The position numbers and the translations under genes were made by a program. This document shows, piece by piece, positions 10,507 to 63,658 of a stretch of DNA of 64,000 nt. The number at the start of each line of letters is the position of its first letter. Position 1 is the stretch's first letter. The stretch comes from an uncultured Candidatus Saccharibacteria bacterium (GTDB lineage Bacteria; Patescibacteriota; Doudnabacteria; UBA920), in NCBI GenBank assembly GCA_964612745.1, contig CAZTCH010000007.1:1327-65326 (forward strand), in the 5' to 3' direction. The notes under the pieces were generated by a model. The model was not told the DNA's origin. It saw only the letters and a program-made list of their open reading frames with translations, and did not search any database.

Positions 10507-10533
10507 AAAACACCCCCTGAGGGGTGTTTTTTT
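10507..10533. terminator. Bidirectional Rho-independent terminator (aaaacaccccctgaggggtgttttttt)
   Basis: A GC hairpin flanked by A- and T-runs, sitting between convergent genes. Confidence 0.7.
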
Positions 10534-11281: not shown

Positions 11282-11285
11282 ATTT

Positions 11286-11359
11286 TGTCGATTTATTCGA
11301 CATCATAATTGCAAATCTATGCATTAACATTTTAACATATTTTCATTATATTGTCGACA
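11286..11359. promoter_or_regulatory. Divergent promoter region with two palindromic operator-like sites, TGTCGA-N5-TCGACA (11286-11302) and TGTCGACA (11352-11359)
   Basis: Perfect palindromes seen in the AT-rich 184-bp gap between the TrmB-like gene and the secreted-protein gene. There is an RBS aggagg at 11455-11460. Confidence 0.45.
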
Positions 11360-11465
11360 TAAATGACATATTAAAATTATTGTGCAATAATTATTACATA
11401 AAAGCAAATATCCAAACTATCTAATCAAAAAACTTAGGCAACACTTCCAATCTCTAGGAGGAGAT

Positions 11466-12116
11466 ATGAAAAGCTTCACAATGTTATTATTGGCCTTGAC
11501 CACCATTTCAGTCGCCAGTGCTCAAACTTCGGTTAATGTTATTGCCAGAACAGCACTCGATTCCAATGGAAATGTGGTAAAAAATTTCACTGAAATCTCT
11601 TTCGAAAAAGGTCGTTGGACCCCTTTCGACATTGTGATTATTGGCAAACCAGATGGTCGCACCAGTGAAATAGCAATTGGTGGTGGATTAAAAATATCCA
11701 CAAATAAACACTTCACATGGTCTAGTGAGTTATTACTAGTAAAGGACTTGGGGGAGAAAACTCAAAAAGGTTTTTACTTGCAACCATTCCATTATTTTAG
11801 TGGGCACCTTAACCATGAACTCCGCTGGCAGATAGTAACCATTCCCTATCTCGCTTTAAGTAGTCGAAGCAAATTTCAATTTACGCTGGAGCGCGCACGA
11901 TTACTTAAAGATACGAGAGTTGGAACAGTAGGAATAGGTACCGGCGGGTTTAAATCAGGAAAAAGCAAATTCCAGACCCGCCCACTAGTCAGTTTTCAAC
12001 CAAAGGGTTGGCCAGTAGACTTTTGGTATCAAGTTTACTTACCAACAACTCAATCACCACACACAAGGCATACATTTCAAGTCCGATTCTCTTTTAAAAA
12101 GAAATTGGTCGGATAA
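11466..12116 (+). CDS. Secreted hypothetical protein (signal peptide, beta-rich)
   Basis: Signal peptide MKSFTMLLLALTTISVASA, a good RBS and 216 aa. It lies divergent from a TrmB regulator, as does the paralogous arrangement at 43783. Confidence 0.55.
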   Translation: MKSFTMLLLALTTISVASAQTSVNVIARTALDSNGNVVKNFTEISFEKGRWTPFDIVIIGKPDGRTSEIAIGGGLKISTNKHFTWSSELLLVKDLGEKTQKGFYLQPFHYFSGHLNHELRWQIVTIPYLALSSRSKFQFTLERARLLKDTRVGTVGIGTGGFKSGKSKFQTRPLVSFQPKGWPVDFWYQVYLPTTQSPHTRHTFQVRFSFKKKLVG

Positions 12117-12171
12117 CCCAACAACCCAGCCGCGAACAAATTGCACTCGTTCGCGGCTCCTTTCTCAAAAA

Positions 12172-12882
12172 GTGTTTCATATGAAGATATATTCAGAACA
12201 AGCAAAAAAATATTTAACACTAACCCAAAATGACCCTATCAAAGAGTTTAGCCAAAGACCAACGATTTTATCTTTACTCGGCAACCTAGGTAAAAATGTG
12301 TTGGATATTGGTTGTGGGAATGGTATTCTTGACCAATTACTGATTAATAATGGATACTGTGTGGTTGGCTTTGACAACTCTAAAGAGCAAATCATCCTAG
12401 CAAAGCAAAATTGTCCGAAAGGTAGACTCTTCATGGCTGATCAAAACTCTTTTTCCTGCGAAAAAAAGTTTGATTGCGTAATAGCCGTATTGGTGTTAAT
12501 GCACTCAAAAAACAATAAAGAGTTATTGCATTTTTTCCAATGCGCTAAAGATAACTTAAAACCTAGTGGGAAGTTTGTTGGAATGGTTTATAACGAAAAC
12601 TTTAACCATTTCAATTCTCCATATTACGGACGCATATGGAGAAAACTACCTAACCAAAAAATCGAAGTTAGCTTTCTAAACCCTAACAACAAATTACTAA
12701 CAAAAACCACCGCCAGAAACATTGGCCACACTGAATATGGCGCCACCGCAAATGCTGTGGGTTTTAATAAACTCACATGGCATCCTCTGGTAATTACTAA
12801 GGAAGGATTAAATACACTCGGTGATGATTACTGGAGCGAGTATAAACAAGACTGTCCTTACACTTGTTTTATCGCCTCATAA
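12172..12882 (+). CDS. Class I SAM-dependent methyltransferase
   Basis: Motif I VLDIGCGNG. An alternative start lies at 12181 (MKIYSEQ). A terminator follows. Confidence 0.75.
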   Translation: MFHMKIYSEQAKKYLTLTQNDPIKEFSQRPTILSLLGNLGKNVLDIGCGNGILDQLLINNGYCVVGFDNSKEQIILAKQNCPKGRLFMADQNSFSCEKKFDCVIAVLVLMHSKNNKELLHFFQCAKDNLKPSGKFVGMVYNENFNHFNSPYYGRIWRKLPNQKIEVSFLNPNNKLLTKTTARNIGHTEYGATANAVGFNKLTWHPLVITKEGLNTLGDDYWSEYKQDCPYTCFIAS

Positions 12883-12895
12883 CAACCAAAACAAA

Positions 12896-15598: not shown

Positions 15599-16975
15599 TT
15601 ATGAGGCATAGAGTTTATCGGTGATTAAGTCGATTTCTTGTTTAAACCCTTCTTTATCCTTTATCATTGTGTGTACTTTTTCTACGGCGTGCATAACTGT
15701 GGTGTGGTCTCGTCCTCCGAAGAACTCCCCAATGCTTGGGAATGAGCTGGTTAGCTCTTGCCTGGCCAAAAACATAGCGATTTGCCTTGGTTTTACAAAT
15801 TCCTGGCGCCGTGACTGCTTTATGAGATCTTCACCGGTTACGTTGTAGAACTCCGCAACCAAAGCGACGATTTTCTTAACGGTTATCCCCTTTTTCTTGT
15901 TATTCATCATGCCTTGGAGCATGCTTTGCGCTTGTTCTAGGGTAACTGTTCTGTTTTCTAACTCTTGAAACACAAGGAGTCTATTTAATGCCCCTTCGAG
16001 TTCGCGGACGTTGTTTTGGATATTTTCTGCTATGTAGTAGACAATATCTTCGTCTATGGTTGCGCCTCTTTTGGTTAATTTTGTGCGGAGAATTGCCATT
16101 CTCGTTTCTAAATCAGGGGCTTGAATGTCGGCAACCATCCCCCATTCAAACCGAGAGACTAACCGCTGTTCAATAGATGGGATATCTTTTGGCAGGCGGT
16201 CGGCGGTGATGATTATTTGCTTGCCTTTGTCGCGAAGTTCATTAAAAGTATGGAAAAACTCTTCTTGAGTCCCCTCTTTTCCGGCAATAAACTGGATATC
16301 GTCAATAAGGAGCATGTCTACAGTGCGATAATGCTGCTTAAATTCATCCATTTTCTTAGTAGAAATGGCGTTAATGTAGTCGTTGGTGAATTTTTCACTG
16401 GTTAAGTAGAGTACTTTTGCGCGTTGGTTTTCACTTAACAGTTTATTGGCCACTGCGTGCATTAAGTGGGTTTTTCCAAGTCCTACTCCACCATATATAA
16501 ACAGTGGATTGTACTGAGTGCCTGGGTTTTTTGCCACTGCGAGGCTGGCTGCGTGTGCAAGTTCGTTATTTTTCCCAATAATAAAGTTATCGAATATGTA
16601 TTTTTGGTTAATATTCGACTGATTTTGAATTGTTTGCTGGATTGCGTTGTTTTGTGGGGTATTTTGTGGTGTTTGTTGCGAGTTTTGCTCTGTTTGCTGT
16701 GTGGTTTCTATTTGCACTTGAGGGCGTTGCATTTGCCCAACTTGGTACTTTATTGTTTTTATTTCTGGCGCTATCCCCTTGAGCGCTTTGAGCATCTCGG
16801 CGTTGTACTTACTAGAAATCCAATCTTTGTGGTAGGTGCTTGGTACGGAAACGGTTATAACATCTTCAGTTTTCTCTGAAATGTGAGTATTCTTGAGCCA
16901 TGTATTAAAATTCGCCTTAGAAAGAGATACTTCTAAGTGTCCAAGGATTGCCTGCCAGATTTGGTCGTTGTTCAT
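15599..16975 (-). CDS. dnaA: Chromosomal replication initiator DnaA
   Basis: AAA+ motifs GGVGLGKTHLMHA and LLIDDIQF. The C-terminal domain IV reads DHTTVMHAVEKV. 458 aa. Confidence 0.95.
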   Translation of the reverse strand: MNNDQIWQAILGHLEVSLSKANFNTWLKNTHISEKTEDVITVSVPSTYHKDWISSKYNAEMLKALKGIAPEIKTIKYQVGQMQRPQVQIETTQQTEQNSQQTPQNTPQNNAIQQTIQNQSNINQKYIFDNFIIGKNNELAHAASLAVAKNPGTQYNPLFIYGGVGLGKTHLMHAVANKLLSENQRAKVLYLTSEKFTNDYINAISTKKMDEFKQHYRTVDMLLIDDIQFIAGKEGTQEEFFHTFNELRDKGKQIIITADRLPKDIPSIEQRLVSRFEWGMVADIQAPDLETRMAILRTKLTKRGATIDEDIVYYIAENIQNNVRELEGALNRLLVFQELENRTVTLEQAQSMLQGMMNNKKKGITVKKIVALVAEFYNVTGEDLIKQSRRQEFVKPRQIAMFLARQELTSSFPSIGEFFGGRDHTTVMHAVEKVHTMIKDKEGFKQEIDLITDKLYAS

Positions 16976-17247
16976 TTCGGTTCGAGGTTTTAGAAATTTA
17001 AGTACAGAGCTAGGTAATTTTTATGTATTTCTAGTAAGTTTAGTGTACTTAAACTTAAAGATACTTCATTCTAACAAGGTAGTTATCAACATGCTATACC
17101 CATACGATTCCGCATATATAAGCGAATAATGTTTTAATTTGTTGATTAGCTGTGGATATCCTGTGTTTTCTGTGGATATAATTTGTGGGTTACATAGAAA
17201 AACCCACCAATTTTTGGTGGGTTTTGTTAGTTTTTATACGGTATATT
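16976..17247. promoter_or_regulatory. AT-rich dnaA upstream region with two TGTGGATAT DnaA-box-like sites (17151-17159 and 17171-17179); a second oriC-half candidate
   Basis: Two 8/9 matches to TGTGGATAA lie 20 bp apart in a roughly 270-bp AT-rich, non-coding stretch. Confidence 0.45.
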
Positions 17248-18483
17248 TTATGCTTCTGGGTTTGGTTGGTTTTCCTCTGTTGGAGGTGTTGGATTTTCTG
17301 TTGGTGTTGGCTCTGGCGCTGGCGGGGATTGCGAAACTATTTGCGTTGTTGCGCTTACATTTTGGAAACCACCCATGAGCATGACGCGTACCATTCCATT
17401 TGCATTTGGTACAAGGTCCAGTGAAACACCAATAAGTTGTCCTGTTACTGTGGCTTCCAGTTTTTGTGCTTTTCCAGCAATAGCGGAAGCGGTTAGTTTG
17501 TCGCCGAGTGCGATTGTGCCTGTGACTGCAACTTGTTTGTAGGTACCGGTTATTACAACACTCAGGAATTCTCCTGGTTTAACAACGGTTGGGTCGCTGC
17601 TGGAAATACTTGGATCGATGTTGAAGTCGGACAAGTTTTTGTCTGCAATACCTACAAGTACTACATTGTCACCAGAAACTGCTGGTGCAACGGTGATTGT
17701 GGGTTGTTCACCAAGTGTTGGTACGTCTACAGCGCCGGTGAGCATGAGCACATCTCCTTGGTGGATATCTTGTGTACTCGTGTTTTTTGCAATAATTGCT
17801 GTGGAACCAAGGATGCGTCCAAGTACAACCAAATCTTTTTTCACTAAGATGGTTCCTTGTGCAGTAATTGTCCCTGTGTGGGCAATAGAGAGTAGGGAAG
17901 TGTCGTTGTTTTTTATTTCAAACACATTTCCTGTGCTTGCAGAGGCAGACAGAAGGAAGGTGCCTTCGTTCGTGAGGAGTAATCTGTCCGTACTTTCTTT
18001 TTGTACTTGCAGAATAGAACCGCTACCTTTTTGGTTAATAACCAATGTGCCTACTTGTTCTGGGGGTGTAGGATTGTTTGTGTTTGCGAGCTGTTCGCCA
18101 TCTTCAAGTACAAAGGTGTTGTTTATGAACTGATACCCAGGTTTTATGTAGATAACAACAGTTTGCTTTGCAGGGTTGCTGCCGTCAAAGCTTTCTATTG
18201 CTTGACCAATAACTTGCCCGCTTCGGGTTGCTTTCATTGCATATCCTGCGGTTGTTGCAGAAGAGGTAATGTAGTCACCAGGAACTATTGGCCCATTTTC
18301 CATAGTGACTTTTACTGGAACGCGTCCGACAAGGGCGACCGCTGGGCGCATTGGGTTGTTGGTTGCGCTGGCAGTACCACCAGCAAGGAAGTTGGTGCCA
18401 TCGAGCAATGCTCCAGGGTTGGTAGAAACAACACCGAGTAAGCTCTTTTGGTAGCCTTTACTAGATTTTTCTACTTTCTCCAC
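17248..18483 (-). CDS. Thr/Gly-rich hypothetical protein (GTG start, no signal peptide); possibly a displaced C-terminal module of the upstream giant protein
   Basis: 411 aa with a Pro/Thr-rich tail PPAPEPTPTENPTPPTEENQPNPEA. Its GTG start overlaps the giant ORF's stop by 23 nt in another frame. Confidence 0.55.
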   Translation of the reverse strand: MEKVEKSSKGYQKSLLGVVSTNPGALLDGTNFLAGGTASATNNPMRPAVALVGRVPVKVTMENGPIVPGDYITSSATTAGYAMKATRSGQVIGQAIESFDGSNPAKQTVVIYIKPGYQFINNTFVLEDGEQLANTNNPTPPEQVGTLVINQKGSGSILQVQKESTDRLLLTNEGTFLLSASASTGNVFEIKNNDTSLLSIAHTGTITAQGTILVKKDLVVLGRILGSTAIIAKNTSTQDIHQGDVLMLTGAVDVPTLGEQPTITVAPAVSGDNVVLVGIADKNLSDFNIDPSISSSDPTVVKPGEFLSVVITGTYKQVAVTGTIALGDKLTASAIAGKAQKLEATVTGQLIGVSLDLVPNANGMVRVMLMGGFQNVSATTQIVSQSPPAPEPTPTENPTPPTEENQPNPEA

Positions 18484-21400
18484 CTACACTGCTCACGGCC
18501 AAGACTTCTCCAGCAGCGACTGGTGCTACTGAGTCGTAGATTTCAGCGTAGTCAGCACAATCAAAATCAGAGAATGCTGGGTCAACGTTACACGTGCCAC
18601 GGAACGTACCAGATGTGCGAATGTCACCAGAGACATCGAGTTTGTATGTTGGCGACATGCCAATTCCCATGTTGCCACCATCGGTTAGGGTGAGGAGCGC
18701 AGCACTGTAAGCACTGTTAATGACTTGCAATGAACTATCGCTCATCACACGGATAAATTTAGATACACCAGTACTGTTGTTGTTGTATAATTGTAGGTTT
18801 GTACCATTTGAGCTGTTTGAATCAAGACGGAGACCAGAGGTGTTACTTGCAGTATTTGCTACTACATGTAGTTGTGATACTGGTGCGCTTGTTCCAATAC
18901 CCACAAATCCGCCAATATATGCTCCATAGTTCGTATCTGCTCCTGATTGAGTGTCGACATATAAACCGTATTGCGTGCTGGTGCCAGTAGTATTCATACT
19001 ACCGTTAGCAATATAGATACCGTAGCTGTTTATGGTGCCACCAGTGGTGAGTGTCGCTGCGTTGGCAATGTAATTCCCATACACATTTACTGTAGAGCCG
19101 GTTGTTGAACCGGTTGAACTTGGGGCAAAGTAACCACCAAAGACTTGTGTGGTGCCTCCGGTGTTTGCGCCCGATGTGGAAGGCCCGGAATAAATACCCC
19201 AGACTTGTCTTGTACCAGTGGAAATAGCACCAGTGATGCTAGAGTTAAACAACCCAGCGGTGGTGGTGTCTGCAGTGGTAGAACTCGAAGATACGGTGAA
19301 GTACCCTGCATATGCATTTTTAGCAGCGTTTCCACTGAGTGTTATACCAGAATAAAAGTTGTTGTTGCTATTTGCAACGTTGGTTGAGTCAGTACCCGAA
19401 ATAACTATTCCGTAACTACTAGCAGCTGTGCCCGAGCTATAGTCTGGGTTAAAGCCTGCCAAGTAGCCACCAGTACCAGAAGCACCGACGTCAGAAGTGA
19501 CTCGTAATATACCTGTTCCAGTTATTCCTGTAGAGGTTGGTCCGACAATATTTAGTCCTGCTCCTGTAGTAAGAGAAGAGGTGGTTATTTTTTGTGCGGT
19601 GCCAGTAGTCACTGTTGAAACTAAGTCTAAACCAGCAGTAGCAGCAGCGCTGGAGCCAACTGTAATATTTCCAGTTGTTGTGTCAATAGCAAGGTATGTT
19701 GGGTCAAATGCGCCAGTGGTTCCAGCCCCAAAACCGAATATATTGCTCGTTTGTTTATATCCTAAACCAACCACAGAGCTAGCAGCTCGGATAAAAGAAA
19801 TGTGTGAGCCTGTGTGTCCAGTGGCTGCTTTTACTATTTGGATGGCACCGTAGTTAGAACTATCGCTTCCTCCATCTTCTATGGTTAATTTTGCAGGAGG
19901 TGTGGTGGTTCCAATACCGACATTTCCTGCTGCTACTAGCAACCCGTAGTTAGCAGTAGTAGCGCCAGAAGCAGAAAGGTACGCTGCTACGTTTGTACCA
20001 GATGTTACGTTTGTATTAGTTACTGTGGAGTAGAGGCCGTATGCTGTGTGGCCTGTGCTACCATTTGCGCCGGTTCTTGCGAGGTTGAGTAGGGTGGAGC
20101 TTCCGGATATGCCGCCAGCAGTAGAGCTTGATGAGATTGCAGTGAGGTTTCCAGTGCTCAGTGATGTACTAGAGATGTCTACGCCATTACCAGAGGTGAG
20201 GGAGTTGGCAGCGATTTGCACGCCAGCAGAAGCGCCGGTGCCATTGGTTACTGTAGGTTGGAAAATATTGTTTGCAGTAAATGTATTTGCAGCATTTTTG
20301 TATGCCACATTACTGAGTGTCCCTGCTGTGTTAATACTTGCTCCACCAAGTTGTAGAGCTGATGTTGCGTTGATGGTTGCAGAAGTAACACTGGTGGTTA
20401 CGGTTATGGCTGTTGACCACGCTGGTGCGACGCCGACACCTCCAGAAACAAGCACTGAGCCTGTGGCTACCCCTGCAAGTTTTGATAACGCAGAAGATGA
20501 AGATGCATAGAGTATGTCTCCAGTAGTGTAGCTGCTTTGTCCTGTACCGCCATGGTTTGCAGCGAGCGCTGTTGCATCTACAGACCATGTGCCACCTGTT
20601 ATATAGGGGACACCAGTAGAACCAGAGGTGTTAATTCCAGTGCCACCATAAGTAGAAGAAATGGCAGTGCCGTTCCAAGTGCCGCTGGAAATGGTACCAA
20701 CTGTGGTAATAGAGCTAAGGTTGCCCGTAGTAATAAGTGTGCCAGACGCGTCTGGGACGGTCATTGTTCTGTCTGCAGAAAGGTCGGTTACATCAAATAT
20801 TCCGTAGAAAGCACCACCGGCACTTTCTAGTATTTTTAGTTCTGATGCAGCGTTGTTGAGTGTGATATCGAACGCACCAGTTTGACTCCAGTCGGCGGAA
20901 AGTGCACCAAGTGCAAGTGTTAGTGCAGCACCTTCGGAACCGCCATTACCCCCAGAAATACCAGAGCCATTGGTAATACTTGTCACATAGTTGCCAGTTG
21001 TATGTGTGCCAAGTGTGATTAAGTCTGTGAGTGATGTTGCGCCAGTGCCACCATTACCTACTGCGAGTGTGCCAGCTACTTCCGCAGTGCCGAGATCGAC
21101 TGCGGTGGTGGTGGAACCACTTCCAGTGAAGAGGGAGGCGGTTAAGGTGTCGGATACATAGGCATCGGTAAGCGCAGTGCCATTCCATGTACCAGAAGTA
21201 ATTACACCAGTGTTTGCCGTGATAACTAATCCATTGTAAGAGGTGGCACCTGTAACAGCACCCGTCAGACCAAGGGTGGTAAATGACCCACCAGCAGTAC
21301 ACGCAAATGCACCAGTAGAGTTAGTAACAGTACAACCAGTGGAACCAGACCCGCCACCAAGAAGCACATCGCCAGTAGATGATGCGCCAATGCTCACTGT

Positions 21401-24400
21401 ACCACTTCCTTTTGCGTCAATGGTTATGTTTTCGTTTGTTCCCGAAGATATGGCTGCAAGAGCAACTCCACCAGCGGCAGCGGCAGAAGTAATCTTAAGT
21501 CCAGTTGCAGCAGATGCAGTAACTGTGTCTACTTGCAGTGCATAGTTAGTACCTGCTTTGGCTACGGTTAAAGCAGTTGCAGAGCTCACTGTTGTAGTAG
21601 TGACACCGGTGTTGGTTATGCCAACCACAGCGGCAATCGCACCAGAAGAGTTTACTTGGAAGAGGTCGCCAGAACCTACGGTTAATGCAGATGCAGGGGA
21701 GTTATCACCAATACCCACATTGCCACCAGTTGTGATGCGTAAGTCAGAGGTAGTACCGCCACCAGAAAGGCTAAGTCCTCCTGTGGCTGCTGATATGGCA
21801 AATTCTGAGCTGGATTGAATTGCAATACCTGCTCCACCGGTTGGGAACAGAGTTGCACTTACGAGCCTAGGGGTAAGTGTTATTGCTTGTGAATGGGCGC
21901 CAGTTGCTTTTATACGAACTTGTCCATCTGACGTATTATCTACTGCAAAGATGCTGTCTCCAGAGTTATATACATCCAAAAGTGCTGTTGGTGCTGTTGT
22001 CCCAATGCCTACGTTTCCACCCGCAAAGATTGCAGCGTAGTTTGTGTCTGCTCCGGTAGGGGACTCCACATAGAGACCTGTGTTGGTAGAAGTACCATCT
22101 GTGTCATATGTACCGTTTGCAATGTATAAACCGTATCCATTTACAGTTCCACCAGCACCAACGTCCGCAGAAGGTTTTACATATGCTCCGTATACATTTG
22201 TAGTGCCACCGGTAGACTCTGCACCAGCTGTTGGTTGTAATCTTGCACCGTACACATTTCTTGTTCCAGAAGTGATAATACCAGTGGCGGTAGATGCAAT
22301 ATCAATTCCAACTGCTGTATCTGCAGTGGTAGAAGAAGTACTTATGTTTAAATACTGACCAATTCCAGTTTTAGCAGCGTTGCCACTGAGTGCGATATCG
22401 GAGTAGTTACCATAGACTGTGTTTGCGAGTGCGGTGGCGTCGGTAACAGTGTTGTATATGCTATACGCTGTATCTGCGTTTGTAGTATTAGCGTTGGCAA
22501 ATGAGTTGTAGAGCCCATATGCAGTGCCAGAAGCAGTAGAAGTAGTGGTTGTTCCGGTGAACTTTGCCAATGCTTTTCCGTTAGCGATTGTTGCATTTAC
22601 AACGTCTAACTTTGCGTCTGGGGAGGTGTTGTTGATACCGACATTACCACCTGAAGATATATCAAACAATACAGTTCCTGAGCTGTTTTGGGCTTGGAAA
22701 AGATCAGATGTTTGTGAACCATTACCTTTAGCAACCACAGGGATGACCCGGGCTGATCCTGATTCAAAGAAGCCGGCATAACCCACAGGTGCGCTCGCTG
22801 TGGTAGAAGCAGTGGAGTAAATTCCATAAGGGGTTCCACCGTTTGTTCCTGCGGTGTTTCTAGTTTGCGTTGCCGAGAATCTACCCGCGGTAATATCATA
22901 ATTGTCGAACCCGGAGCTTAAGGTTGCTGTGAGTCCTCTCATTGAGCTATTGGCGAATGTGGTTGAAGCGTCTGTGTTCGTAAAGCTTATTCCATTTGAT
23001 TGCCCACTGGTAAATGAGGCATTTATTAGATTTCCTACTCCTGCACCTTTGGTGATGCTAATAACGTCAGAATTTGTTCCGTGACTAATTGATATTGCAG
23101 GTTGTGCTGTTGTGGTTTCGGTAATTGCCAACTTACCTGTTGGTGATGTTGCACCAACCCCCACGTTGCCATTTTCAAATATCGCAGCGTAGTTGTTGGT
23201 GGCACCAGTTGCAGTTGCGTATAAACCAACATTCGTAGTAGCTGCACCAGTGTTGCTAAAGTATCCAGCGTAGTCAGTGCCAGATGTCGCTCCTGTTTGA
23301 GAAACATTCAATGTTTTGTTTGCGCTACCTGTTGCGGAAGAGGCTAAGGTGGCTATGTCTCCACTGTTTCCAGATATAGAAATGACATCATTTGAAGTTG
23401 TTGGCTGCAAAGTCGTGCCAGTTCTAGACCAGTAACCCAAAGCACCGCTCGTTGGAGCGGTAGAGGTAAGGTTTTTAGATCCGTCGGTGTACACAATTCC
23501 TGAAGCGCTTAACCCCGAGAAGTTAATTGTTCCAGAAGAAGTAATACCAGTTGCAGCAGCAATTGCACCAGAAGAGTTTACTTGGAAGAGGTCGCCAGAG
23601 CCTACGGTTAAAGCAGCAGCAGGGGAGGTGTCGCCAATGCCGAGCCCTGTTGCATTTACTGTAACCCTGTCAGAGTTACCTGTTCTTAAATAAATTGGTT
23701 GCCCTGAAGCAGCGTTTAGGATGGTTACCCCACCAGAGCTTTGGTTGAGTGCCGAGTTAGCTGCTGATTCTGCTAAAGTTCCGTTTTGGAATGAAATATA
23801 TGAATTATCCCATGTTGGTGGTCCAACAATTCCACGCACAGTCCCTGAACTGGTAAAGTTCATCGCTCCTTCTACTGTTAACGCTTTTGTTGGTGTGGCA
23901 ATACCAATACCAACGCTACCATTCATAAATGCGGCGGCGTATTCGGTGCCAGCGCCGGTGCCAGCATCTACGTAGAGGCCGTATGCAGTAGATGAGGCGT
24001 CGTTGTTGGCGATTGTAATGTGGTCGCCGTATACGGTGTGCGACTGGCCAGCATCTGTGTCTACTGTTACGGTTGTTTTATTGCCATATACAGTTAGTCC
24101 TGCTGCTGCGTCTTGTACGGTGCCGGTAAGTGCCATGCCTAGTACTGCGGTGTCCGTAATAGTGTTGCTCGTTACTTGAATTGTTCCTGCGGTTTGTGTG
24201 GAGCCGGAAGAACTAATAACTATTCCTTGTATGTCTGCGGTCGCAGAGTTAGAAATGGTGAGTGAATCCCCAGCAGTGTCTGGTGCGATTGTTGTTTTGC
24301 CGTCGCTGTCTACGTCGAAGTCTGCAAGGTCAATGTTGCCGTCGCCGTTTAAGCTGTTGGCCACAAAAGCAAATGGAGCGGCTACAAATTGCTTGCGAGG

Positions 24401-24823
24401 AGACATTTCTCCGTCGTAGCTTGTGCCAGTTGGAGCAAAGTTTACAGAGAGGTACAGGCTGCCGGTGGTAAAGTCTACTCCGGTCAGTGCGTTACATGAG
24501 CCTAGTTTTGCATTGAACACAGCATTGGTCACAACCAGCTTTGCGCAGTCGCCACTTGCTTGGTCAAAAGTTTCTGTCCAGAGCAGGGACCCACTGGTTA
24601 GTGCGTCGTATAGTTTAAATTCAAAAGCGTAGCTGCCATTTGCAACGTTGGTGCCATCACTCGTTTTCGTAAGTTTTCCTTGGAAGTTTACAATTTTAGG
24701 GATTGTAGCACTCGCTTGCTGTGGGTTTGCGGCAAAAGAACTGAACACAACACAAACCAAAGTAACGTACACGAGGGTACGTCTCAGGTTTTTTACCTTA
24801 GTTAAAAAGATATTTTGGTTCAC
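18461..24823 (-). CDS. Giant secreted repetitive surface protein, Gly/Thr/Ser/Ala-rich with beta-helix / tail-fiber-like repeats
   Basis: 2120 aa. The N-terminal signal peptide is LVYVTLVCVVFSSFAANPQQASA. The motif NYAAIF-GGNVGIGTT-P--KL-V recurs at least 8 times. Apparent GTG start. All plus-strand ORFs inside this span are low-complexity antisense artefacts. Confidence 0.85.
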   Translation of the reverse strand: MNQNIFLTKVKNLRRTLVYVTLVCVVFSSFAANPQQASATIPKIVNFQGKLTKTSDGTNVANGSYAFEFKLYDALTSGSLLWTETFDQASGDCAKLVVTNAVFNAKLGSCNALTGVDFTTGSLYLSVNFAPTGTSYDGEMSPRKQFVAAPFAFVANSLNGDGNIDLADFDVDSDGKTTIAPDTAGDSLTISNSATADIQGIVISSSGSTQTAGTIQVTSNTITDTAVLGMALTGTVQDAAAGLTVYGNKTTVTVDTDAGQSHTVYGDHITIANNDASSTAYGLYVDAGTGAGTEYAAAFMNGSVGIGIATPTKALTVEGAMNFTSSGTVRGIVGPPTWDNSYISFQNGTLAESAANSALNQSSGGVTILNAASGQPIYLRTGNSDRVTVNATGLGIGDTSPAAALTVGSGDLFQVNSSGAIAAATGITSSGTINFSGLSASGIVYTDGSKNLTSTAPTSGALGYWSRTGTTLQPTTSNDVISISGNSGDIATLASSATGSANKTLNVSQTGATSGTDYAGYFSNTGAATTNVGLYATATGATNNYAAIFENGNVGVGATSPTGKLAITETTTAQPAISISHGTNSDVISITKGAGVGNLINASFTSGQSNGISFTNTDASTTFANSSMRGLTATLSSGFDNYDITAGRFSATQTRNTAGTNGGTPYGIYSTASTTASAPVGYAGFFESGSARVIPVVAKGNGSQTSDLFQAQNSSGTVLFDISSGGNVGINNTSPDAKLDVVNATIANGKALAKFTGTTTTSTASGTAYGLYNSFANANTTNADTAYSIYNTVTDATALANTVYGNYSDIALSGNAAKTGIGQYLNISTSSTTADTAVGIDIASTATGIITSGTRNVYGARLQPTAGAESTGGTTNVYGAYVKPSADVGAGGTVNGYGLYIANGTYDTDGTSTNTGLYVESPTGADTNYAAIFAGGNVGIGTTAPTALLDVYNSGDSIFAVDNTSDGQVRIKATGAHSQAITLTPRLVSATLFPTGGAGIAIQSSSEFAISAATGGLSLSGGGTTSDLRITTGGNVGIGDNSPASALTVGSGDLFQVNSSGAIAAVVGITNTGVTTTTVSSATALTVAKAGTNYALQVDTVTASAATGLKITSAAAAGGVALAAISSGTNENITIDAKGSGTVSIGASSTGDVLLGGGSGSTGCTVTNSTGAFACTAGGSFTTLGLTGAVTGATSYNGLVITANTGVITSGTWNGTALTDAYVSDTLTASLFTGSGSTTTAVDLGTAEVAGTLAVGNGGTGATSLTDLITLGTHTTGNYVTSITNGSGISGGNGGSEGAALTLALGALSADWSQTGAFDITLNNAASELKILESAGGAFYGIFDVTDLSADRTMTVPDASGTLITTGNLSSITTVGTISSGTWNGTAISSTYGGTGINTSGSTGVPYITGGTWSVDATALAANHGGTGQSSYTTGDILYASSSSALSKLAGVATGSVLVSGGVGVAPAWSTAITVTTSVTSATINATSALQLGGASINTAGTLSNVAYKNAANTFTANNIFQPTVTNGTGASAGVQIAANSLTSGNGVDISSTSLSTGNLTAISSSSTAGGISGSSTLLNLARTGANGSTGHTAYGLYSTVTNTNVTSGTNVAAYLSASGATTANYGLLVAAGNVGIGTTTPPAKLTIEDGGSDSSNYGAIQIVKAATGHTGSHISFIRAASSVVGLGYKQTSNIFGFGAGTTGAFDPTYLAIDTTTGNITVGSSAAATAGLDLVSTVTTGTAQKITTSSLTTGAGLNIVGPTSTGITGTGILRVTSDVGASGTGGYLAGFNPDYSSGTAASSYGIVISGTDSTNVANSNNNFYSGITLSGNAAKNAYAGYFTVSSSSTTADTTTAGLFNSSITGAISTGTRQVWGIYSGPSTSGANTGGTTQVFGGYFAPSSTGSTTGSTVNVYGNYIANAATLTTGGTINSYGIYIANGSMNTTGTSTQYGLYVDTQSGADTNYGAYIGGFVGIGTSAPVSQLHVVANTASNTSGLRLDSNSSNGTNLQLYNNNSTGVSKFIRVMSDSSLQVINSAYSAALLTLTDGGNMGIGMSPTYKLDVSGDIRTSGTFRGTCNVDPAFSDFDCADYAEIYDSVAPVAAGEVLAVSSVGGESRKI

Positions 24824-25189: not shown

Positions 25190-25603
25190 ATTCCTACTAC
25201 TTTTTGGTAGTAAGTTGCATCCGTAGTATCTGTAAATTGGTGTACCGGTGGCTTATTTAATTTTGTTTTAGTTTTGGTTTCTTTTGTAAAGATGTTGTTG
25301 GGTTACAAATTTTGGTAACACAACTTAACAAAACCTGTATTTATAGTACCATAAGTTATAAACAGGGTCAAAGGTTTTTAAATAGATAGAATGTAGCTCA
25401 GAGATTGTTGTGTGTATCCAATTTCCTTTGCACTTAAGCGATTATTATGGTTTACTTGTTTTGGCCGGTGTACAGCTTGTGCGTTCGTTGTGGATAACTA
25501 TTCCGGAAAAGTGGATAACTTGTGAGTATTTTTTGCCAGCTCTGTTCATAGAAACTAAAAAAACCACCGGTTGGTGGTTTTTGGTTGGTCCTGTACCTTT
25601 TTG

Positions 25604-26608
25604 TTAACTGTTTTTTCGTTTTACCGTTTTCTTTATCAGAACATATACTACGATAAAAATAAAGGTACTTAATATGAGGAGGAAGCCTAGTACTAAACTG
25701 AGGAGCTCCCATGGTATAACCCAGAAGCTAGCGGTAGCTTTTGTCTGTTTTTGGGTGGAGTCGCCGTAAGTAAGCGTTAAGTTGGCGGTGTAGCGCCCAA
25801 GTGCAAAGTTGTTAAACTCATGTTTTACTGCGTTCCAAAACCCTTTGGGTGTATTTTCTGGCCTTTGTGCGTCTTTTGCTTGCACTTCTCCTTTTGTGTT
25901 GAGCCAAGAAGCTTCAAACCGGCGGATGGAGCGGGGGAGTACGTTGCTCCCGTCTGGGTTTGCGGTTACTATTTGGCTTGTTCCGCCGAACATGTTGTGT
26001 ATAACAATATCTCCGAGTGGTTTTACCCACGAAGCGCCTTCGTTTTGGAATCTGTAAAAGAAATCCACGGGTAAAGCACGGAAAAAGCGAGCATCTTTTG
26101 TTTTAAACTCCAGAATATCTGCACCTTCAAGGAAATTTCCATTTACTTGGGTAAGTAACAGGGTTCCTACTTGCGCTTCTACTGCGACATCACCAGCATT
26201 TTCTGGGGTTTCGCCTACGGTGCTAGCTAGTGCAGCAGCAAAGTAGCCTCCTGGTTCTGCATTTGCTGGTATGGTCACTGTGAACCCCACCTTTTTTCGC
26301 TCTAGAGGGCCAAACGACAACATGTCTTGGTCTAAAGTTATCCATTGGCTCAAGCCTTTTTTTTCTAAAACAAACTTTGGTTGGCCGCTTTCGTCCTTGC
26401 TTTCGAAATCTGCAATAGAAATTTGGTAGACTCTGGGTTTTCGCGCGTCGTTGTACAGTTCAAATTCACCAGAGATAGTTTGTCCTGGGTTTGCTGCAAG
26501 TTCTAGCCTAATTGGGGAAGCGGTTAACGCTGCTGCTGTCTGGGGAAGGCTAGTGACAAGGAGGATAAGGGTGGTTAGGCCCAGTATTGTTTTGTTTACG
26601 TTCCGCAT
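25604..26608 (-). CDS. DUF916/DUF3324-like cell-surface protein (signal peptide plus a C-terminal TM anchor)
   Basis: Signal peptide, then SPIRLELAANPGQTISGEFELYN (DUF916-like). A C-terminal TM helix is followed by the basic tail KKTVKRKNS. 334 aa. Confidence 0.6.
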   Translation of the reverse strand: MRNVNKTILGLTTLILLVTSLPQTAAALTASPIRLELAANPGQTISGEFELYNDARKPRVYQISIADFESKDESGQPKFVLEKKGLSQWITLDQDMLSFGPLERKKVGFTVTIPANAEPGGYFAAALASTVGETPENAGDVAVEAQVGTLLLTQVNGNFLEGADILEFKTKDARFFRALPVDFFYRFQNEGASWVKPLGDIVIHNMFGGTSQIVTANPDGSNVLPRSIRRFEASWLNTKGEVQAKDAQRPENTPKGFWNAVKHEFNNFALGRYTANLTLTYGDSTQKQTKATASFWVIPWELLSLVLGFLLILSTFIFIVVYVLIKKTVKRKNS

Positions 26609-26609
26609 G

Positions 26610-27530
26610 TTATCGAAGTTCTTGTGAAATTATCCATCTGTTGTACTTCTTTGTACCACTATATAACATAATACCAATAAATATCCCCAAAAGGCTAATT
26701 TTTGCCAAATCTAGTATGGGCCAGACCCAAATAGTGGCTTTTTGCCTTGTTTCCAAGGTGGGATTGTTCGAATAGTAAAGTATGGTTTCCACCGTGTACA
26801 TACCGGCGAGCCATTTTTGTGCCTTGGTGGTAAATGTTTTTTCTTCTGTGGGTAGCAGATGCAATGCGTTTTGGTTAATAGGTAGAGACTCGACTAGTCT
26901 TCCAAATACGTTGTAAATGTTTTGTTTTCCTTTTGGTGTGAGGTGCACGTTTCCAGTGTTTTTGAGTAATACAGACGAAGTGTAAGGTTTGTTAACGAAA
27001 TGGGTATCGTTTTTTGAAGTGGTATTGAGCTGGGGTTTGCTGGCTCCGTAGTCTACAAGCAGCAATGTACCTAATTTCCTTGAGACAACGATCGCATTTT
27101 CCTTTGCATCTTCAAAAGAAAAAAGGATGGCTGCGTAGTGTCCACCAGCTGTCGCGTCTGCCGGTGGGGATATTTCAAATTTTACTGTTGTGCTCCCTTT
27201 GGCGGGAATAATAAATTCTGGCTGCTGGGTAATTTTTACCCAAGAGCTCATGGAGTAGCTGTTGTTTATTTGCTCATTTGTTGCAAGAAATCGTGGTTCT
27301 CCAGCTGGGCCGACTGGGATAAAGTCTTGGATGGCATAACTAAGTGTGTGGTCAGTCGTGTCAGTGTTGAACACGGTAATGGTTTTGGTAATGCTTTGCC
27401 CCGGTTCTACTACCGCGTCAATTAAGAATGGTGAAATAGACAAACTTCCTTCGGAAAGTTGCTCTGCGGCGGACACTGTTCCCATAGAAGCAACAAAAAG
27501 TGCAAAAACGAGAGTAATTAGTTTTTTCAT
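26610..27530 (-). CDS. DUF916/DUF3324-like cell-surface protein, paralog
   Basis: Signal peptide, then SPFLIDAVVEPGQSITKTITVFN, then a C-terminal TM with a basic tail. 306 aa. Its start is coupled to the neighbour's stop. Confidence 0.6.
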   Translation of the reverse strand: MKKLITLVFALFVASMGTVSAAEQLSEGSLSISPFLIDAVVEPGQSITKTITVFNTDTTDHTLSYAIQDFIPVGPAGEPRFLATNEQINNSYSMSSWVKITQQPEFIIPAKGSTTVKFEISPPADATAGGHYAAILFSFEDAKENAIVVSRKLGTLLLVDYGASKPQLNTTSKNDTHFVNKPYTSSVLLKNTGNVHLTPKGKQNIYNVFGRLVESLPINQNALHLLPTEEKTFTTKAQKWLAGMYTVETILYYSNNPTLETRQKATIWVWPILDLAKISLLGIFIGIMLYSGTKKYNRWIISQELR

Positions 27531-27568
27531 GGTTTAGGTACTATTGTCCGATTACGAGGCTGCCGGGG

Positions 27569-28690
27569 TTAGTATTGAGCAGTGGTAATATACGTAACTG
27601 TGTTGGTGTACTGGCCTGCGGCTTGCCCAGTGCCAATTTCTAGCTTGTAGCTGACAGTTGTTTCTTCGCTTGTTGCAGGTCCAGTGGAGCAGGCAACTTC
27701 GTAGTTTCCGGTGTCCAGCGCTGCCCATGTGTTGTTTGTAGAAAAACGGCTTGTTGTGCCGGTGCAGAGTGACTCATCGCTACTATGGTAGCCAAAGGCC
27801 CCAGTGGTAATACTCCCAGGCCAAGTTGCTGGCGTGCTGTTGGTGCCGCTGACTGGGCTAATAGTTTCGCTGCCGCCGTCTCTGGTGAGTGCTTGGTTCT
27901 GCCGAATGGTAGTGGTGTATCCCGCCGAGGCGTTTGTGGTGACGGTAATTTTATGAGCAGCAATTGCTGGGACGTTGACCCCTAATTGACCATAGGCGAT
28001 AGCATTTGCTGTGGTGGTAATAGTAGTGGTTTCGCCGTCGAACAAGGTGCCAGATCCAATCCCAGAAAAGGTAATACTCAGGCTTGCTCCTACCGTTGCA
28101 GCGGTGGCTGTGTTGGAGAACCCAGTTTCGGTGTTGGTGCCATACCGTGCTTTCACTTTTATTTTATACGTAGTACTGGCGGTAAGGCCAGTAACTCGCC
28201 CACCACTGCCACCACCCCATGCGGTGTAGCTTTGCCAAGCTGCTGTTGTTCCTACCGTGTTATCTACTTGAATATAGTTTGTTGTGACAAAATCGTCGCT
28301 AGAAATTGCAATGGCGTAATTTGTATCTGTTTGTTGGCCGTCGCCTGTGGTAATAACGTAGTCCAGTGCGTTGTATAGGCTACCACCAGTATTTGTGAGT
28401 GTAGGTGTAGCAGGGACACCTGGGAAAGCATGCTGGAAAAAGCCTGGGAATATGGAATAGTTTCCTGAGGCTGTACTGCTGTCGTTAGAGTCGCCAATAC
28501 CATCTCTGCTGGCGTAATTGGTAGAGCTAGAAGCACCACCACCGCTGTCTAGGCTTGGGTTTTCTATTTGGTAATTGCTGCCACTCAATGTTTCTGCCTG
28601 TGCTATTGGGGCAAACACAAGACTGCACAAGGCACAGAGCCATACGAGTTGTTTTACAATCTGTAGCTGCATATACAGTAAGTTTACCAC
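27569..28690 (-). CDS. Secreted Thr/Gly-rich protein with an Fn3-like domain and a WxL-like C-terminus in which Trp is replaced by Tyr
   Basis: It has a signal peptide. STTYKIKVKARYGTNTETGFS is Fn3-like. The C-terminus GQYTNTVTYITTAQY aligns to the WxL consensus G-x-Y-x-x-x-L-T-W-x-L with W replaced by Y. 373 aa. Confidence 0.55.
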   Translation of the reverse strand: MVNLLYMQLQIVKQLVWLCALCSLVFAPIAQAETLSGSNYQIENPSLDSGGGASSSTNYASRDGIGDSNDSSTASGNYSIFPGFFQHAFPGVPATPTLTNTGGSLYNALDYVITTGDGQQTDTNYAIAISSDDFVTTNYIQVDNTVGTTAAWQSYTAWGGGSGGRVTGLTASTTYKIKVKARYGTNTETGFSNTATAATVGASLSITFSGIGSGTLFDGETTTITTTANAIAYGQLGVNVPAIAAHKITVTTNASAGYTTTIRQNQALTRDGGSETISPVSGTNSTPATWPGSITTGAFGYHSSDESLCTGTTSRFSTNNTWAALDTGNYEVACSTGPATSEETTVSYKLEIGTGQAAGQYTNTVTYITTAQY

Positions 28691-28702
28691 GGGCTTGTTT
28701 GC

Positions 28703-29731
28703 TTATCCGATCTCTCGCCTTCTTTTTTCCCTGGCAATAATATATTTATTGTATTGCTTGAGAGCGAGCCGGAGAATGAGCAGTGCCACAATCCCAGATG
28801 GGATAACAACTGCCAGTAATTCCCAAGGGATAATCCAAAACGAGGTTGTTATTTGGGCACGATTTTGGTTTTGTGATCCGTATGTCAGTGTTAGTCTTGC
28901 TTTGTACCATCCAATAGGCGCATATGTTGCTTGATGTTGTACTTTGGCGAAAAAGGTATTTGGTGCTGACGGCGGTGGTTGGTTTTGTGGGTTCTCTGTG
29001 TCGCCACTCTTGGTGAGCCATGAGGCAGTATACTTGCGAATTGACTTTGGTAATACATTGCCACCAGTCGGGTTCGCTGGGATGATCTTCTTTGTTTTAC
29101 CCCACGCATTCTCTATTACAACATCACCGAGTGGTTTGGCCCAATCTTCGCCATTGTTTTGAAAACGGTAGAAAAAGTCCACTGGTAGGGTGGAAAAAAA
29201 CTTTCGGTTTTGCGCAGTGGAAAATTCTAAAATATCAGCGCCTTCTGTAAAGTCACCAGAGACCCTAAGGAGTACGAGCATGCCAATTTGGCTGCCAATC
29301 GCAACACCGTCTGCTTCGGCTGCTATCTGCGGTGGTTCGTTTCTGAGTAGGATGGCGGCAAAATGCCCCCCAGCATCGGCGTCTGTTGGTACGGAAAGCA
29401 GCACGGTGATTTTTTGTCGTTCACTTGGGCCAAGGGTTATGTCGCTTGGGCCAGAAAACCACTGCGAAATGCCTTCTTTTTGCCGGCTTAAGACAGGGTT
29501 ACCGCTCTCATCTTTGGCATTAAAAGTTTGGTAGTCCAAGTAATAGACTTTTGACTCTTTTTGGTCGTTGTAGGCATCAAAGGTGATTGTGAGAATGCTT
29601 CCGGCAGAAGCAGTGAGCTCTGTTTTAACGGGGGAGACTGTTATGGCTTGTGTTGGGGTGGTATTTGCCCAAAATGCTAAAAGTATCCCACAAACGAGTA
29701 GTGAGTATATGTGTTTTGGTTGTGTGAACAA
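28703..29731 (-). CDS. DUF916/DUF3324-like cell-surface protein, third paralog
   Basis: Signal peptide, then SPVKTELTASAGSILTITFDAYN, then a C-terminal TM with the tail KQYNKYIIAREKRRREIG. 342 aa. Confidence 0.6.
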   Translation of the reverse strand: MFTQPKHIYSLLVCGILLAFWANTTPTQAITVSPVKTELTASAGSILTITFDAYNDQKESKVYYLDYQTFNAKDESGNPVLSRQKEGISQWFSGPSDITLGPSERQKITVLLSVPTDADAGGHFAAILLRNEPPQIAAEADGVAIGSQIGMLVLLRVSGDFTEGADILEFSTAQNRKFFSTLPVDFFYRFQNNGEDWAKPLGDVVIENAWGKTKKIIPANPTGGNVLPKSIRKYTASWLTKSGDTENPQNQPPPSAPNTFFAKVQHQATYAPIGWYKARLTLTYGSQNQNRAQITTSFWIIPWELLAVVIPSGIVALLILRLALKQYNKYIIAREKRRREIG

Positions 29732-29820
29732 AGCGTTTTTGTAGGGTTACTTCGAAAATAATTATACACCATTCAGAGGTGAATGGTGTATAGATTGGTT
29801 GTAAAACAGTTTTTGTGAGT

Positions 29821-30924
29821 TTAGAAATTCCCTGTTGCGATGTACGTCAAGGTGGTAGAATAGCTACCTGCTTCAGTGAGTGTGGAAATGTTAGCTAGAT
29901 AGGAAACGCTTAAAGTTTCTGTTGCAGTCGGTACTGTTTCAGAGACAATAGTGGTTGCGGTGCTGGCAACAAAGTTCCAGCTACTGTTTGTCCCACGTGC
30001 GTACCCAGAAGCTACAGTTGCGTCGCCACTCGCGCTGACCGACAATGCAAATTGTTCGCTACCTGTTGTACCGTCACTATCGGTGGTAATGCTTGCTGCG
30101 GTAATAGTGTTGCCTCCACTGGTGAGTGTAGCACCGAAATACGTTACACTGTACCCGCTCTGAGCGTTTGTACCAACTGTTAAGGTGTGTGCTGCTGTCG
30201 GGGTGTTGCCAGCTGTGGCGTTGCCACCAACGGCGTCTCCTGTAGCCCAGCGACCAGTGCTAGAAGACAGAGTGCCAAACCCAATAGTGTTGTCGTCTAC
30301 AGTAAATGTGATAGATGGAGCGACTGTAGCGCTAATACTGACTTGGTCGTCGGTAATAATGTCATATGAAAGAGTGCCGCTGTCACCAAATGTACCACCC
30401 ACAGTTAAGGTGTCGTCATCATCTGCTGCGCCATTGCTAATTTGGTTGGTTCCAGCAACACCTGTGCTGGCGTGTGTACCAATTTTAATGCGTACACAAC
30501 GGCTTGCGGTTACTGTACCAGTTCCAGAAGTAATGGTGACTACTTGGCCAGATGCTCCAATGCCCCACGTTGCCCCACTGGGGGAGCCAGCGAGTGTTTG
30601 TTCTGTGTACGATGCAGTTGTACATGTGGCGCTATCGCCTGTAGCAAAGTCAACATCCCCGAACACTATACTGCTTACCCCAGTAAAATCAGCAGAAAAT
30701 GTTAGGGTTATGTCTTGCCCAGCAGTAACACCTGTAGGGGTAACAAAAAATATTGTGTGGTTTGCCGCAGTGCTCGCTTTTAATCTGCTGAGAGTGTCGG
30801 AGAATGAAGTTATTGCAGCAGCTTGTGCTACTTGGATGTTTGGTAGTAATAAGGCAAGAGAGACTATAACAACCAGAATGTGTTTTAGTCTTTTTTTGAG
30901 TGCGGTTGGGATAACGTTTCGCAT
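29821..30924 (-). CDS. Secreted Thr/Gly-rich protein with a WxL-like (YxI-variant) C-terminus
   Basis: Signal peptide. The C-terminus EAGSYSTTLTYIATGNF matches that of the 373-aa protein. SSWNFV is a candidate first motif. 367 aa. Confidence 0.55.
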   Translation of the reverse strand: MRNVIPTALKKRLKHILVVIVSLALLLPNIQVAQAAAITSFSDTLSRLKASTAANHTIFFVTPTGVTAGQDITLTFSADFTGVSSIVFGDVDFATGDSATCTTASYTEQTLAGSPSGATWGIGASGQVVTITSGTGTVTASRCVRIKIGTHASTGVAGTNQISNGAADDDDTLTVGGTFGDSGTLSYDIITDDQVSISATVAPSITFTVDDNTIGFGTLSSSTGRWATGDAVGGNATAGNTPTAAHTLTVGTNAQSGYSVTYFGATLTSGGNTITAASITTDSDGTTGSEQFALSVSASGDATVASGYARGTNSSWNFVASTATTIVSETVPTATETLSVSYLANISTLTEAGSYSTTLTYIATGNF

Positions 30925-30981
30925 TACGGTAAGTTTACTTTTTGTTTCAATGGCTGAACTATCTCTTTACAATTTAGTATA

Positions 30982-45774: not shown

Positions 45775-45851
45775 GGGCGTGTAGCTCAGCTGGTTAGAGC
45801 ACGAAGCTTATACCTTCGGGGTCCATGGTTCGAATCCATGCACGCCCACCA
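45775..45851 (+). tRNA. tRNA-Ile (anticodon UAU), CCA encoded
   Basis: A manual cloverleaf gives acceptor GGGCGUG/CACGCCC, D-stem GCUC/GAGC, anticodon stem CGAAG/CUUCG with loop CUUAUAC, and a T-arm CAUGG-UUCGAAU-CCAUG. A terminator follows at 45853-45883. Confidence 0.85.
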
Positions 45852-53360: not shown

Positions 53361-53419
53361 TCTAACACGGCGGTCTGCAAAACCGCTATTCATGGGTGCG
53401 AATCCCATCACGACCTCCA
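53343..53419 (+). tRNA. tRNA-Cys (anticodon GCA), non-canonical (3-bp D-stem, G at T-loop position 55)
   Basis: The acceptor is GGUCGUG/CACGACC with discriminator U and CCA. The anticodon stem GCGGU/ACCGC carries the loop CUGCAAA. The T-arm is AUGGG-UGCGAAU-CCCAU. The deviations from consensus lower confidence. Confidence 0.55.
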
Positions 53420-53424
53420 TTGTA

Positions 53425-63583: not shown

Positions 63584-63658
63584 CCCTTTGTAGCTCAATG
63601 GATAGAGCAGCTCCGTCCTAAGGAGACGATGGGGGTTCGATTCCCTCCAAGGGGACCA
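63584..63658 (+). tRNA. tRNA-Arg (anticodon CCU)
   Basis: The acceptor is CCCUUUG/CAAGGGG with a U4-G69 wobble. D-stem GCUC/GAGC. The anticodon loop is GUCCUAA and the T-arm is GGGGG-UUCGAUU-CCCUC. CCA is encoded. Confidence 0.75.

Follow-up and report, generated by a model that had tools for sequence, protein, structure and literature searches.

A probably frameshifted gene for a giant, phage-tail-fibre-like secreted protein next to the replication origin in a Saccharibacteria genome

Introduction

Intramolecular chaperone (IMC) domains aid the trimerisation of the proteins that carry them and release themselves after folding (PMC9128512), and the IMC of phage phi29 gp12 is not present in the virion (PMC9863714). 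Here we describe a domain related to that of gp12 at a locus on a cellular chromosome, within a 64,000-nucleotide (nt) stretch from an uncultured Candidatus Saccharibacteria bacterium (assembly GCA_964612745.1, contig CAZTCH010000007.1, positions 1,327 to 65,326; hereafter the window). On the minus strand of the window, two overlapping open reading frames (ORFs) of 2120 and 411 amino acids (aa) lie beside the replication origin. We conclude that they are very probably the halves of one ancestral gene of ~2,525 codons, which encoded a Sec-secreted, probably trimeric, phage-tail-fibre-like fibre, and that the lesion between them inactivates the gene as sequenced, is either recent or an artefact, and is not a conserved programmed event. 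The epibiotic growth of cultivated Saccharibacteria requires multiple adhesins (PMC10633639), and such fibres are therefore candidate host-attachment structures.

Results

Two reading frames share one conserved domain

An ORF scan of the window reproduced the arrangement described in an earlier reading of the same letters (the original prediction), namely two ORFs with an overlap of 23 nt, the 411-aa ORF being in the +1 frame relative to the 2120-aa ORF.

18461-24823, minus strand: upstream ORF, 2120 aa, GTG start codon (ORF scan); read here as ancestral fibre residues 1-2116, then four out-of-frame codons and TAG
17248-18483, minus strand: downstream ORF, 411 aa, GTG start codon (ORF scan); read here as the last 409 residues of that gene, out of frame and stop-free
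17251-17334, minus strand: Pro/Thr-rich C-terminal tail (translation of the 411-aa ORF)

The minus-strand sequence across the junction is ...AGT GTA GGT GGA GAA AGT AGA AAA ATC TAG. A +1-frame TAG at 18484-18486 directly precedes the GTG of the 411-aa ORF (G18483), and the frame change must therefore fall inside the 23-nt overlap. Read from the sequence, this GTG is merely the first start-type codon past the +1-frame TAG and is not supported as a real start. The translation of the 411-aa ORF bears out the earlier description, as it lacks a signal peptide and finishes in a tail rich in Pro and Thr.

Neither ORF taken separately matched Pfam, PHROGs or NCBIfam, and for the 2120-aa ORF this includes any beta-helix profile. 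When the frames are rejoined, as ...AGEVLAVSSVGG followed by EKVEKSSKGYQKSLLGVVSTNPG..., the merged protein has ~2,525 aa, and the features of its C-terminal part are as follows.

18145-18622, minus strand: Peptidase_G2-like IMC (beta-tulip) domain, merged residues ~2068-2227, frame-split (PF11962, family hidden Markov model (HMM), AlphaFold2 (AF2), Foldseek)
18542-18553, minus strand: DYAE motif, D2091-E2094, its D and E invariant in the family alignment
17395-17781, minus strand: degenerate second beta-tulip/G2-like copy, merged residues 2349-2477, without DxAE (family HMM, 13.7 bits, independent E-value 2.3e-6)

The rejoined junction matches PF11962 (Peptidase_G2 IMC autoproteolytic cleavage domain) at 27.2 bits (E 3.1e-6; gathering cut-off 25 bits), over a stretch that crosses the junction. 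Further matches are to the C-terminal ends of two PHROG families, of which one carries a tail-fibre annotation, and the domain scores 184.8 bits against the HMM of its own family. The original prediction had named Peptidase_S74 as a candidate for this region; neither of the ORFs nor the rejoined junction matched Peptidase_S74 (PF13884), and the domain is instead Peptidase_G2-like.

With the last 576 residues of the rejoined protein as query, 83 homologues were found, of which 68 span the junction in a single BLASTP high-scoring segment pair. In a 22-sequence alignment, conserved blocks stand both before the split (DxAE, GDVV) and after it (V-x-K, LGVVS-x-PG, GRVPVKV, GD-x-T, GYAMKA), with D21 and E24 of DxAE invariant in all 22 sequences. 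An AF2 model of the rejoined C-terminal 486 residues gave a predicted local distance difference test score (pLDDT) of 86-96 at residues 50-200, and builds the junction domain from two strands of the upstream ORF and a remainder supplied by the downstream ORF; the second copy is modelled at pLDDT ~76-87 (model residues ~390-440). The closest genome in GTDB, a Ca. Saccharibacteria metagenome-assembled genome (CAZZBG010000012.1; hereafter L002) with ~86% nucleotide identity to the window, is in one frame through the site (...AGEVLAVSSVGGKKVEKSSKGYQ...). In a full HMMER scan over 1.84 billion representatives (50% clustering), single proteins of 2,456-2,529 aa carry the domain at residues ~2,050-2,190, the same layout as in the rejoined protein of 2,525 aa.

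The original prediction had proposed a single protein of ~2,530 aa split by a frameshift, and an alignment with orthologs as the way to examine it. That proposal is strongly supported by the sequence comparisons, in which one conserved domain is cut, the relatives read through the site (contiguously in the 68 homologues) and L002 is in frame.

The lesion lies in a poly-A tract

Alignment of the window with L002 places the frameshift in a tract that encodes Lys-Lys in the relative.

18474-18480, minus strand: frameshift site in the Lys-Lys poly-A tract, GG-AGAAA-GTAG in the window versus GG-AAAAAAA-GTAG in L002 (DNA alignment)
within 18440-18500: window sequence over the frameshift site, GGAGAAAGTAG

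In codons, L002 reads GGT GGA AAA AAA GTA GAA, whereas the window reads GGT GGA GAA A--GT AGA, and relative to L002 the lesion is a 2-nt gap together with an A>G change. A more distant orthologue, on the contig L001 (Ga0490053_001811), has AAT AAA AAA GTT at this site. The homopolymer is A6 or A7 in the relatives and AGAAA in the window, for which there is a single assembled sequence.

This is the only uncompensated frameshifting indel in the coding sequence of the ~11 kb aligned with L002; the other indels whose length is not a multiple of three are intergenic or are compensated within ~10-20 nt. The window holds 116 A/T runs of at least 6 nt yet only this single frameshift, and the assembly is therefore not generally prone to homopolymer errors. 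Past the split, 408 codons are free of stops, with non-synonymous (dN) and synonymous (dS) divergences from L002 of 0.114 and 0.788 and a dN/dS of 0.145, for comparison with 0.023 for dnaA and 0.059 for dnaN. As these codons are open and constrained, the frameshift is either an artefact or recent when set against the divergence from L002. An exact 20-mer scan of metagenome contigs for further copies of the junction gave chance matches only, and a contig look-up returned no record for the 411-aa protein and, for dnaA, only a 1.7-kb ENA contig that stops short of the junction.

Transcription and translation signals

Beyond the second ORF, a strong hairpin ends the transcription unit.

17199-17225, unstranded: intrinsic-terminator-like hairpin with a 12-bp stem (terminator scan)

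The same scan found no comparable hairpin between the two ORFs; its one consensus terminator match within the downstream ORF, at 18216-18228, has a 5-bp stem and lies on the opposite (plus) strand. With a strong hairpin after the second ORF and none comparable before it, both ORFs are read as one transcription unit. Promoter-like matches occurred no more often than they did in shuffled sequence. A Shine-Dalgarno-like motif is absent from the 25 nt upstream of 39 of the 43 window ORFs of at least 150 aa, and translation initiation in this genome seems to be largely independent of such motifs. An alternative genetic code was rejected as an explanation of the split, the stop being TAG and the other genes reading normally with table 11.

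The body of the giant protein

Upstream of the junction domain, the 2120-aa protein opens with two recognisable elements.

24707-24823, minus strand: predicted Sec signal peptide, residues 1-39, with a K/R n-region, a 17-residue hydrophobic core and ASA/T (sequence reading; AF2 helix 2-30)
24386-24691, minus strand: N-terminal beta-sandwich domain, residues ~45-146 (AF2 pLDDT 85-96)

The beta-sandwich domain is common to many Patescibacteria fibre-like proteins, and its structure matches are generic Ig-like folds only (E >= 0.03). In an AF2 monomer model of the N-terminal 485 aa, only residues 2-30 and 45-146 are confident, with residues 150-485 below pLDDT 50; neither this model nor the profile searches showed the beta-helix of the original prediction. 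The N-terminus does look like the signal peptide that had been read from the sequence, and the richness in Gly, Thr, Ser and Ala holds, T+G+A+S making up 54.5% of the residues. Eight GNVGIG-type motifs are dispersed along the protein (residues 302, 552, 725, 935, 1033, 1633, 1971 and 2049), and GGTG and GTWNG motifs occur in its middle.

The internal repeats had also been described as near-identical, which is not what we found. The DNA repeat families of the giant gene are 64-84% identical (the longest pair being 101 nt at 84%) and a search for tandem arrays among them found none, while at the protein level the repeats are 40-46% identical (783-951 versus 1800-1987), with one 34-aa stretch at 85%. 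As the repeats are not near-identical, the recombinational length variation that had been foreseen is not especially likely.

A large family in which the domain is not terminal

The HMMER scan places 30,096 representatives in the junction-domain family. The N-terminal region has its homologues among proteins of the Patescibacteria. Several of these are named 'tail fiber domain-containing' by their source and many end in Peptidase_S74; these names and the C-terminal domain support the tail-fibre-like label of the original prediction. We took as top members the 148 top-scoring family proteins after removal of those already retrieved by prior searches (P0153-P0300), which reach 5,766 aa. The domain is present in two tandem copies in 144 of them and in three in the other 4, and DxAE stands in both copies in 130 of the 148. 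A median of 368 residues follows the domain in these proteins and ~285 in the window protein, in which the domain does not form the extreme C-terminus, unlike in the phage ORFs of IMG/VR considered below. Other relatives have a lectin-like module after the domain (weak H_lectin matches). The non-terminal and often duplicated layout is the only mildly novel aspect, and it is a property of the family rather than of this locus.

As a separate observation, the orthologue on L001 (184-2670; P0002) is 56% identical, and its frame is still open where the contig ends on the N-terminal side. Unrelated sequence takes the place of its last ~60 residues, which no other frame continues, and from its sequence it may represent a second, independent disruption or rearrangement of this type of gene.

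The locus adjoins the replication origin

The genes dnaA (15599-16975), dnaN and recF lie downstream of the fibre gene on the same strand, the sign of the GC skew switches near 16 kb, and clusters of DnaA-box-like sequences flank dnaA.

17083-17179, unstranded: DnaA-box cluster (part of oriC) between the fibre gene and dnaA, three DnaA-box-like 9-mers upstream of dnaA
15439-15583, unstranded: DnaA-box cluster in the dnaA-dnaN spacer, five DnaA-box-like 9-mers

On account of these genes, boxes and skew, the position of the fibre gene beside oriC, which had been claimed from the outset, is real. The presence of clusters on both flanks of dnaA suggests a bipartite oriC. L002 is syntenic with the window across the end of the fibre gene, oriC, dnaA, dnaN and recF. 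A prophage origin of the fibre gene was considered and rejected, its neighbours being dnaA/oriC and genes for cell-surface proteins in a layout that is syntenic in L002.

The gene upstream of the fibre gene encodes a 73-aa protein with an excisionase/MerR-type helix-turn-helix (HTH), in agreement with its earlier description as Xis-like. The GTG starts that had been assigned here held only in part: the GTG codons are present, but that of the 411-aa ORF is the first start-type codon after a stop, and the HTH gene has an in-frame ATG seven codons downstream of its GTG. A further pair of DnaA-box-like sequences lies at 25489-25518, upstream of the HTH gene, one of them being a perfect TTATCCACA.

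Further upstream on the same strand is a cluster of seven ORFs of at least 150 aa for apparently secreted proteins (25604-33412, minus strand), four with Pfam matches and three that match nothing. Weak Pfam matches in the cluster are to WxL-interacting protein, Fn3-like and cohesin domains; a 497-aa protein carries chitobiase-C/Fn3-associated and dockerin domains, and one protein has a signal peptide and a C-terminal membrane anchor. Judged from these sequences, the cluster may encode a cell-surface complex.

Elsewhere in the window, ~2.4 kb at 10510-12884 is missing from the syntenic L002. It contains genes for a TrmB-type regulator (10532-11281, minus strand) and an S-adenosylmethionine methyltransferase (12172-12882, plus strand), together with a 216-aa ORF of unknown function (11466-12116, plus strand) that has the only strong Shine-Dalgarno motif (AGGAGG) of the window. 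G+C is lower, at 0.39-0.41, in the 2-kb bins spanning this segment, which may be a small acquired island. Nine tRNA genes are present in the window, at 53343-53506, 45775-45848, 61370-61440 and 63584-63655, with four clustered at 55544-56491.

Discussion

These data allow us to propose a model of the protein and of what the lesion does to it. From its N-terminus, the ancestral protein would comprise a signal peptide, a beta-sandwich, a modular shaft of ~1,900 residues rich in Thr, Gly, Ala and Ser, an IMC-like domain from D2091-Y-A-E, and a C-terminal module of ~285 residues made up of the degenerate second copy of the fold and the Pro/Thr tail. It would be a Sec-exported, trimeric surface fibre of the Saccharibacteria cell, in which the IMC-like domain, if it acts as in phi29 gp12 and other phage fibres, would nucleate folding of the trimer, beginning at the C-terminal end; self-cleavage would possibly occur just before D2091, the Asp of DYAE. 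The 2-nt loss at 18474-18480 would shift the frame 25 residues into the IMC-like domain, such that the first product loses nearly all of its folding domain and the remainder lies in a start-less +1 ORF. With the folding domain lost and the remainder start-less, the gene would therefore be inactivated as sequenced. The truncated product, which keeps DYAE and ~20 further residues but not the rest of the domain, is predicted to be misfolded or non-functional.

The causes initially offered for the frameshift included pseudogenisation, a programmed event, a homopolymer sequencing error and an artefact of ORF calling. A genuine, recent mutation has its most serious competitor in the less probable but substantial possibility that the organism has an intact gene and that sequencing or assembly dropped 2 nt at a homopolymer; the true sequence would then be GGA GAA AAA GTA or similar and the product a functional 2,525-aa protein. 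The lesion lies exactly where both intact relatives have an A6 or A7 tract, the codons downstream are open and under purifying selection, and the window comes from a metagenome-type contig of 65,592 nt, all of which speak for an error. An error would less readily explain why the ~11 kb shared with L002 contain no second uncompensated coding frameshift despite many longer homopolymers, or why the tract in the window is AGAAA rather than a pure homopolymer; moreover, 2-nt errors are less usual than 1-nt errors, and what we see is a 2-nt poly-A loss and not a single-base homopolymer slip. From the assembled sequence alone a real mutation and an assembly error are not separable, but we hold a real, recent mutation to be somewhat the more probable of the two, and a programmed event to be far less probable than either.

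A functional split, in which a programmed +1 frameshift or transcriptional slippage (for example on AGA AAA AUC, with tRNA-Lys re-pairing +1) or a phase-variable poly-A switch yields the full-length fibre part of the time, is very unlikely. The A AAA A context inside the overlap does permit +1 re-pairing, the A6-A7 tract of the relatives could be a slippage hotspot, and phase variation is typical of surface adhesin genes. However, the shift is missing from L002, the nearest relative, and from the contiguous homologues, and the conserved Val of V-x-K is encoded in the +1 frame before the A5 run is reached, which means that a slip at that run would replace it with non-conserved sequence; for these reasons we regard a programmed event as unlikely. 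The tract in the window is also interrupted by G, leaving only A3 and A5, too short for efficient slippage, and no stimulatory element was evident, although no test was aimed at one. Hardly credible at all is a pair of separate genes, one for a fibre and the other for a chaperone or tip protein translated on its own and acting in trans. Some phages do encode separate fibre chaperones, and translational coupling is conceivable, the intact 411-aa ORF having a GTG at its beginning and an overlap with the upstream stop; as this genome mostly lacks Shine-Dalgarno motifs, a start here cannot be discounted for want of one. Against this, the boundary falls inside one compact domain modelled with high confidence and parts the invariant DxAE from the rest of it, and no homologue starts here, the relatives being contiguous.

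Several points nonetheless weigh against reading the two ORFs as one broken gene for a phage-like fibre. The PF11962 match is marginal and covers only positions 32-102 of the 228 in the profile, the profile matches to PDB entries are weak (E ~0.02), and the Foldseek matches to PDB entries have E-values of only ~1e-3. No full-length orthologue was recovered, two word-index searches giving only hits of 1,005 aa or less and the contig of L002 breaking off 240 nt upstream of the site, and the giants of 2,450-2,530 aa share only mosaic patches of sequence with the window protein. The fold of the shaft is not resolved by the AF2 monomer model (pLDDT <50), and trimer formation, self-cleavage, surface location and adhesin function are inferred. 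Finally, the domain is non-terminal and most top members have two DxAE copies, and its role may differ from that of a released terminal chaperone. It is conceivable, but unlikely, that Patescibacteria have turned the IMC to something new, with giants processed at several sites or with beta-tulips kept as a permanent host-binding tip, and with the poly-A tract as an on/off switch in episymbiont populations.

Taking the ORFs as halves of one gene, annotation should merge them and flag a frameshifted gene or pseudogene, rather than list two separate GTG-initiated proteins. There is nothing unusual in the frameshift itself, which is an ordinary lesion, and the gene family that it affects is a common one. 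Of wider interest is that a Saccharibacteria chromosome would encode, beside oriC, a secreted giant fibre on the plan of a phage tail fibre that includes a folding domain of the phi29 gp12 type. The ~30,000 representative clusters of the family, often with tandem, non-terminal copies, offer a modest lead on how such giants fold and are processed.

Comparison with known systems

Among described proteins, phi29 gp12 (PF11962; PDB 3GQH, 3SUC, 6QZ9) is the natural reference. The window domain passes the Pfam gathering score, matches 6qz9 residues 687-743 by profile, and aligns the invariant D of its family with residue 1 of the fragment 3gqh_A (DFAEYF), ~692 of 6qz9. The likeness extends, with modest support, to the fold, with a Foldseek match to 3gqh_A at E 1.9e-3 (probability 1.00; target-normalised TM-score (TMt) 0.53) and a further match to 3suc, and a phage 'preneck appendage protein' in BFVD is matched at E 5e-9 (TMt 0.61). 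The D and E of gp12 presumably have a catalytic role. In both proteins the domain comes after a long body, that of a fibre or a spike. They differ in that identity is ~14%, that ~285 residues with a degenerate second copy follow the window domain, and that the window gene stands on a cellular chromosome with a predicted Sec signal peptide. In IMG/VR, 264 stretches encode the junction domain; in the 33 of these that were examined, the domain starts 'ADLAE' and ends 3-40 residues before the stop in ORFs of 300-1,900 aa, which is the classic terminal-IMC layout of phage fibres, and the phage contigs have only a single copy of the domain.

The Peptidase_S74 (endosialidase-type) IMC systems of phage tail fibres and spikes also place a chaperone domain after a trimeric fibre, although that domain belongs to a different fold family. 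The two types meet in P0005, a 779-aa JGI metagenome protein that has Peptidase_S74 at 378-430, in the position of the G2-like domain of the window protein, followed by the same downstream module (46.7% identity over the best alignment to the rejoined protein). This domain swap suggests that both IMC types hold an equivalent position in these proteins. At the level of fold, the domain further resembles the beta-tulip capsid cement proteins (DUF2190/Phage_cement_2; HFTV1 8QSY and the base of phi29 gp8.5, 6QYY), and the second copy in the homologue P0006 weakly matches Phage_cement_2. Unlike those cement and decoration proteins, the window domain stands in the C-terminal context of a fibre and not in a capsid, and it has no Pfam match to their families.

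Also comparable are the Patescibacteria giants named 'tail fiber domain-containing' or 'beta strand repeat-containing' by their sources, which share with the window protein the N-terminal domain, the GNVGIG modules and C-terminal IMC-type domains. The window copy departs from them in being frame-split, in the degeneracy of its second domain copy and in the mosaic nature of the shared segments. Set beside these systems, the locus adds a frameshifted member to a very large and already recognisable family of tail-fibre-like proteins of the Patescibacteria.

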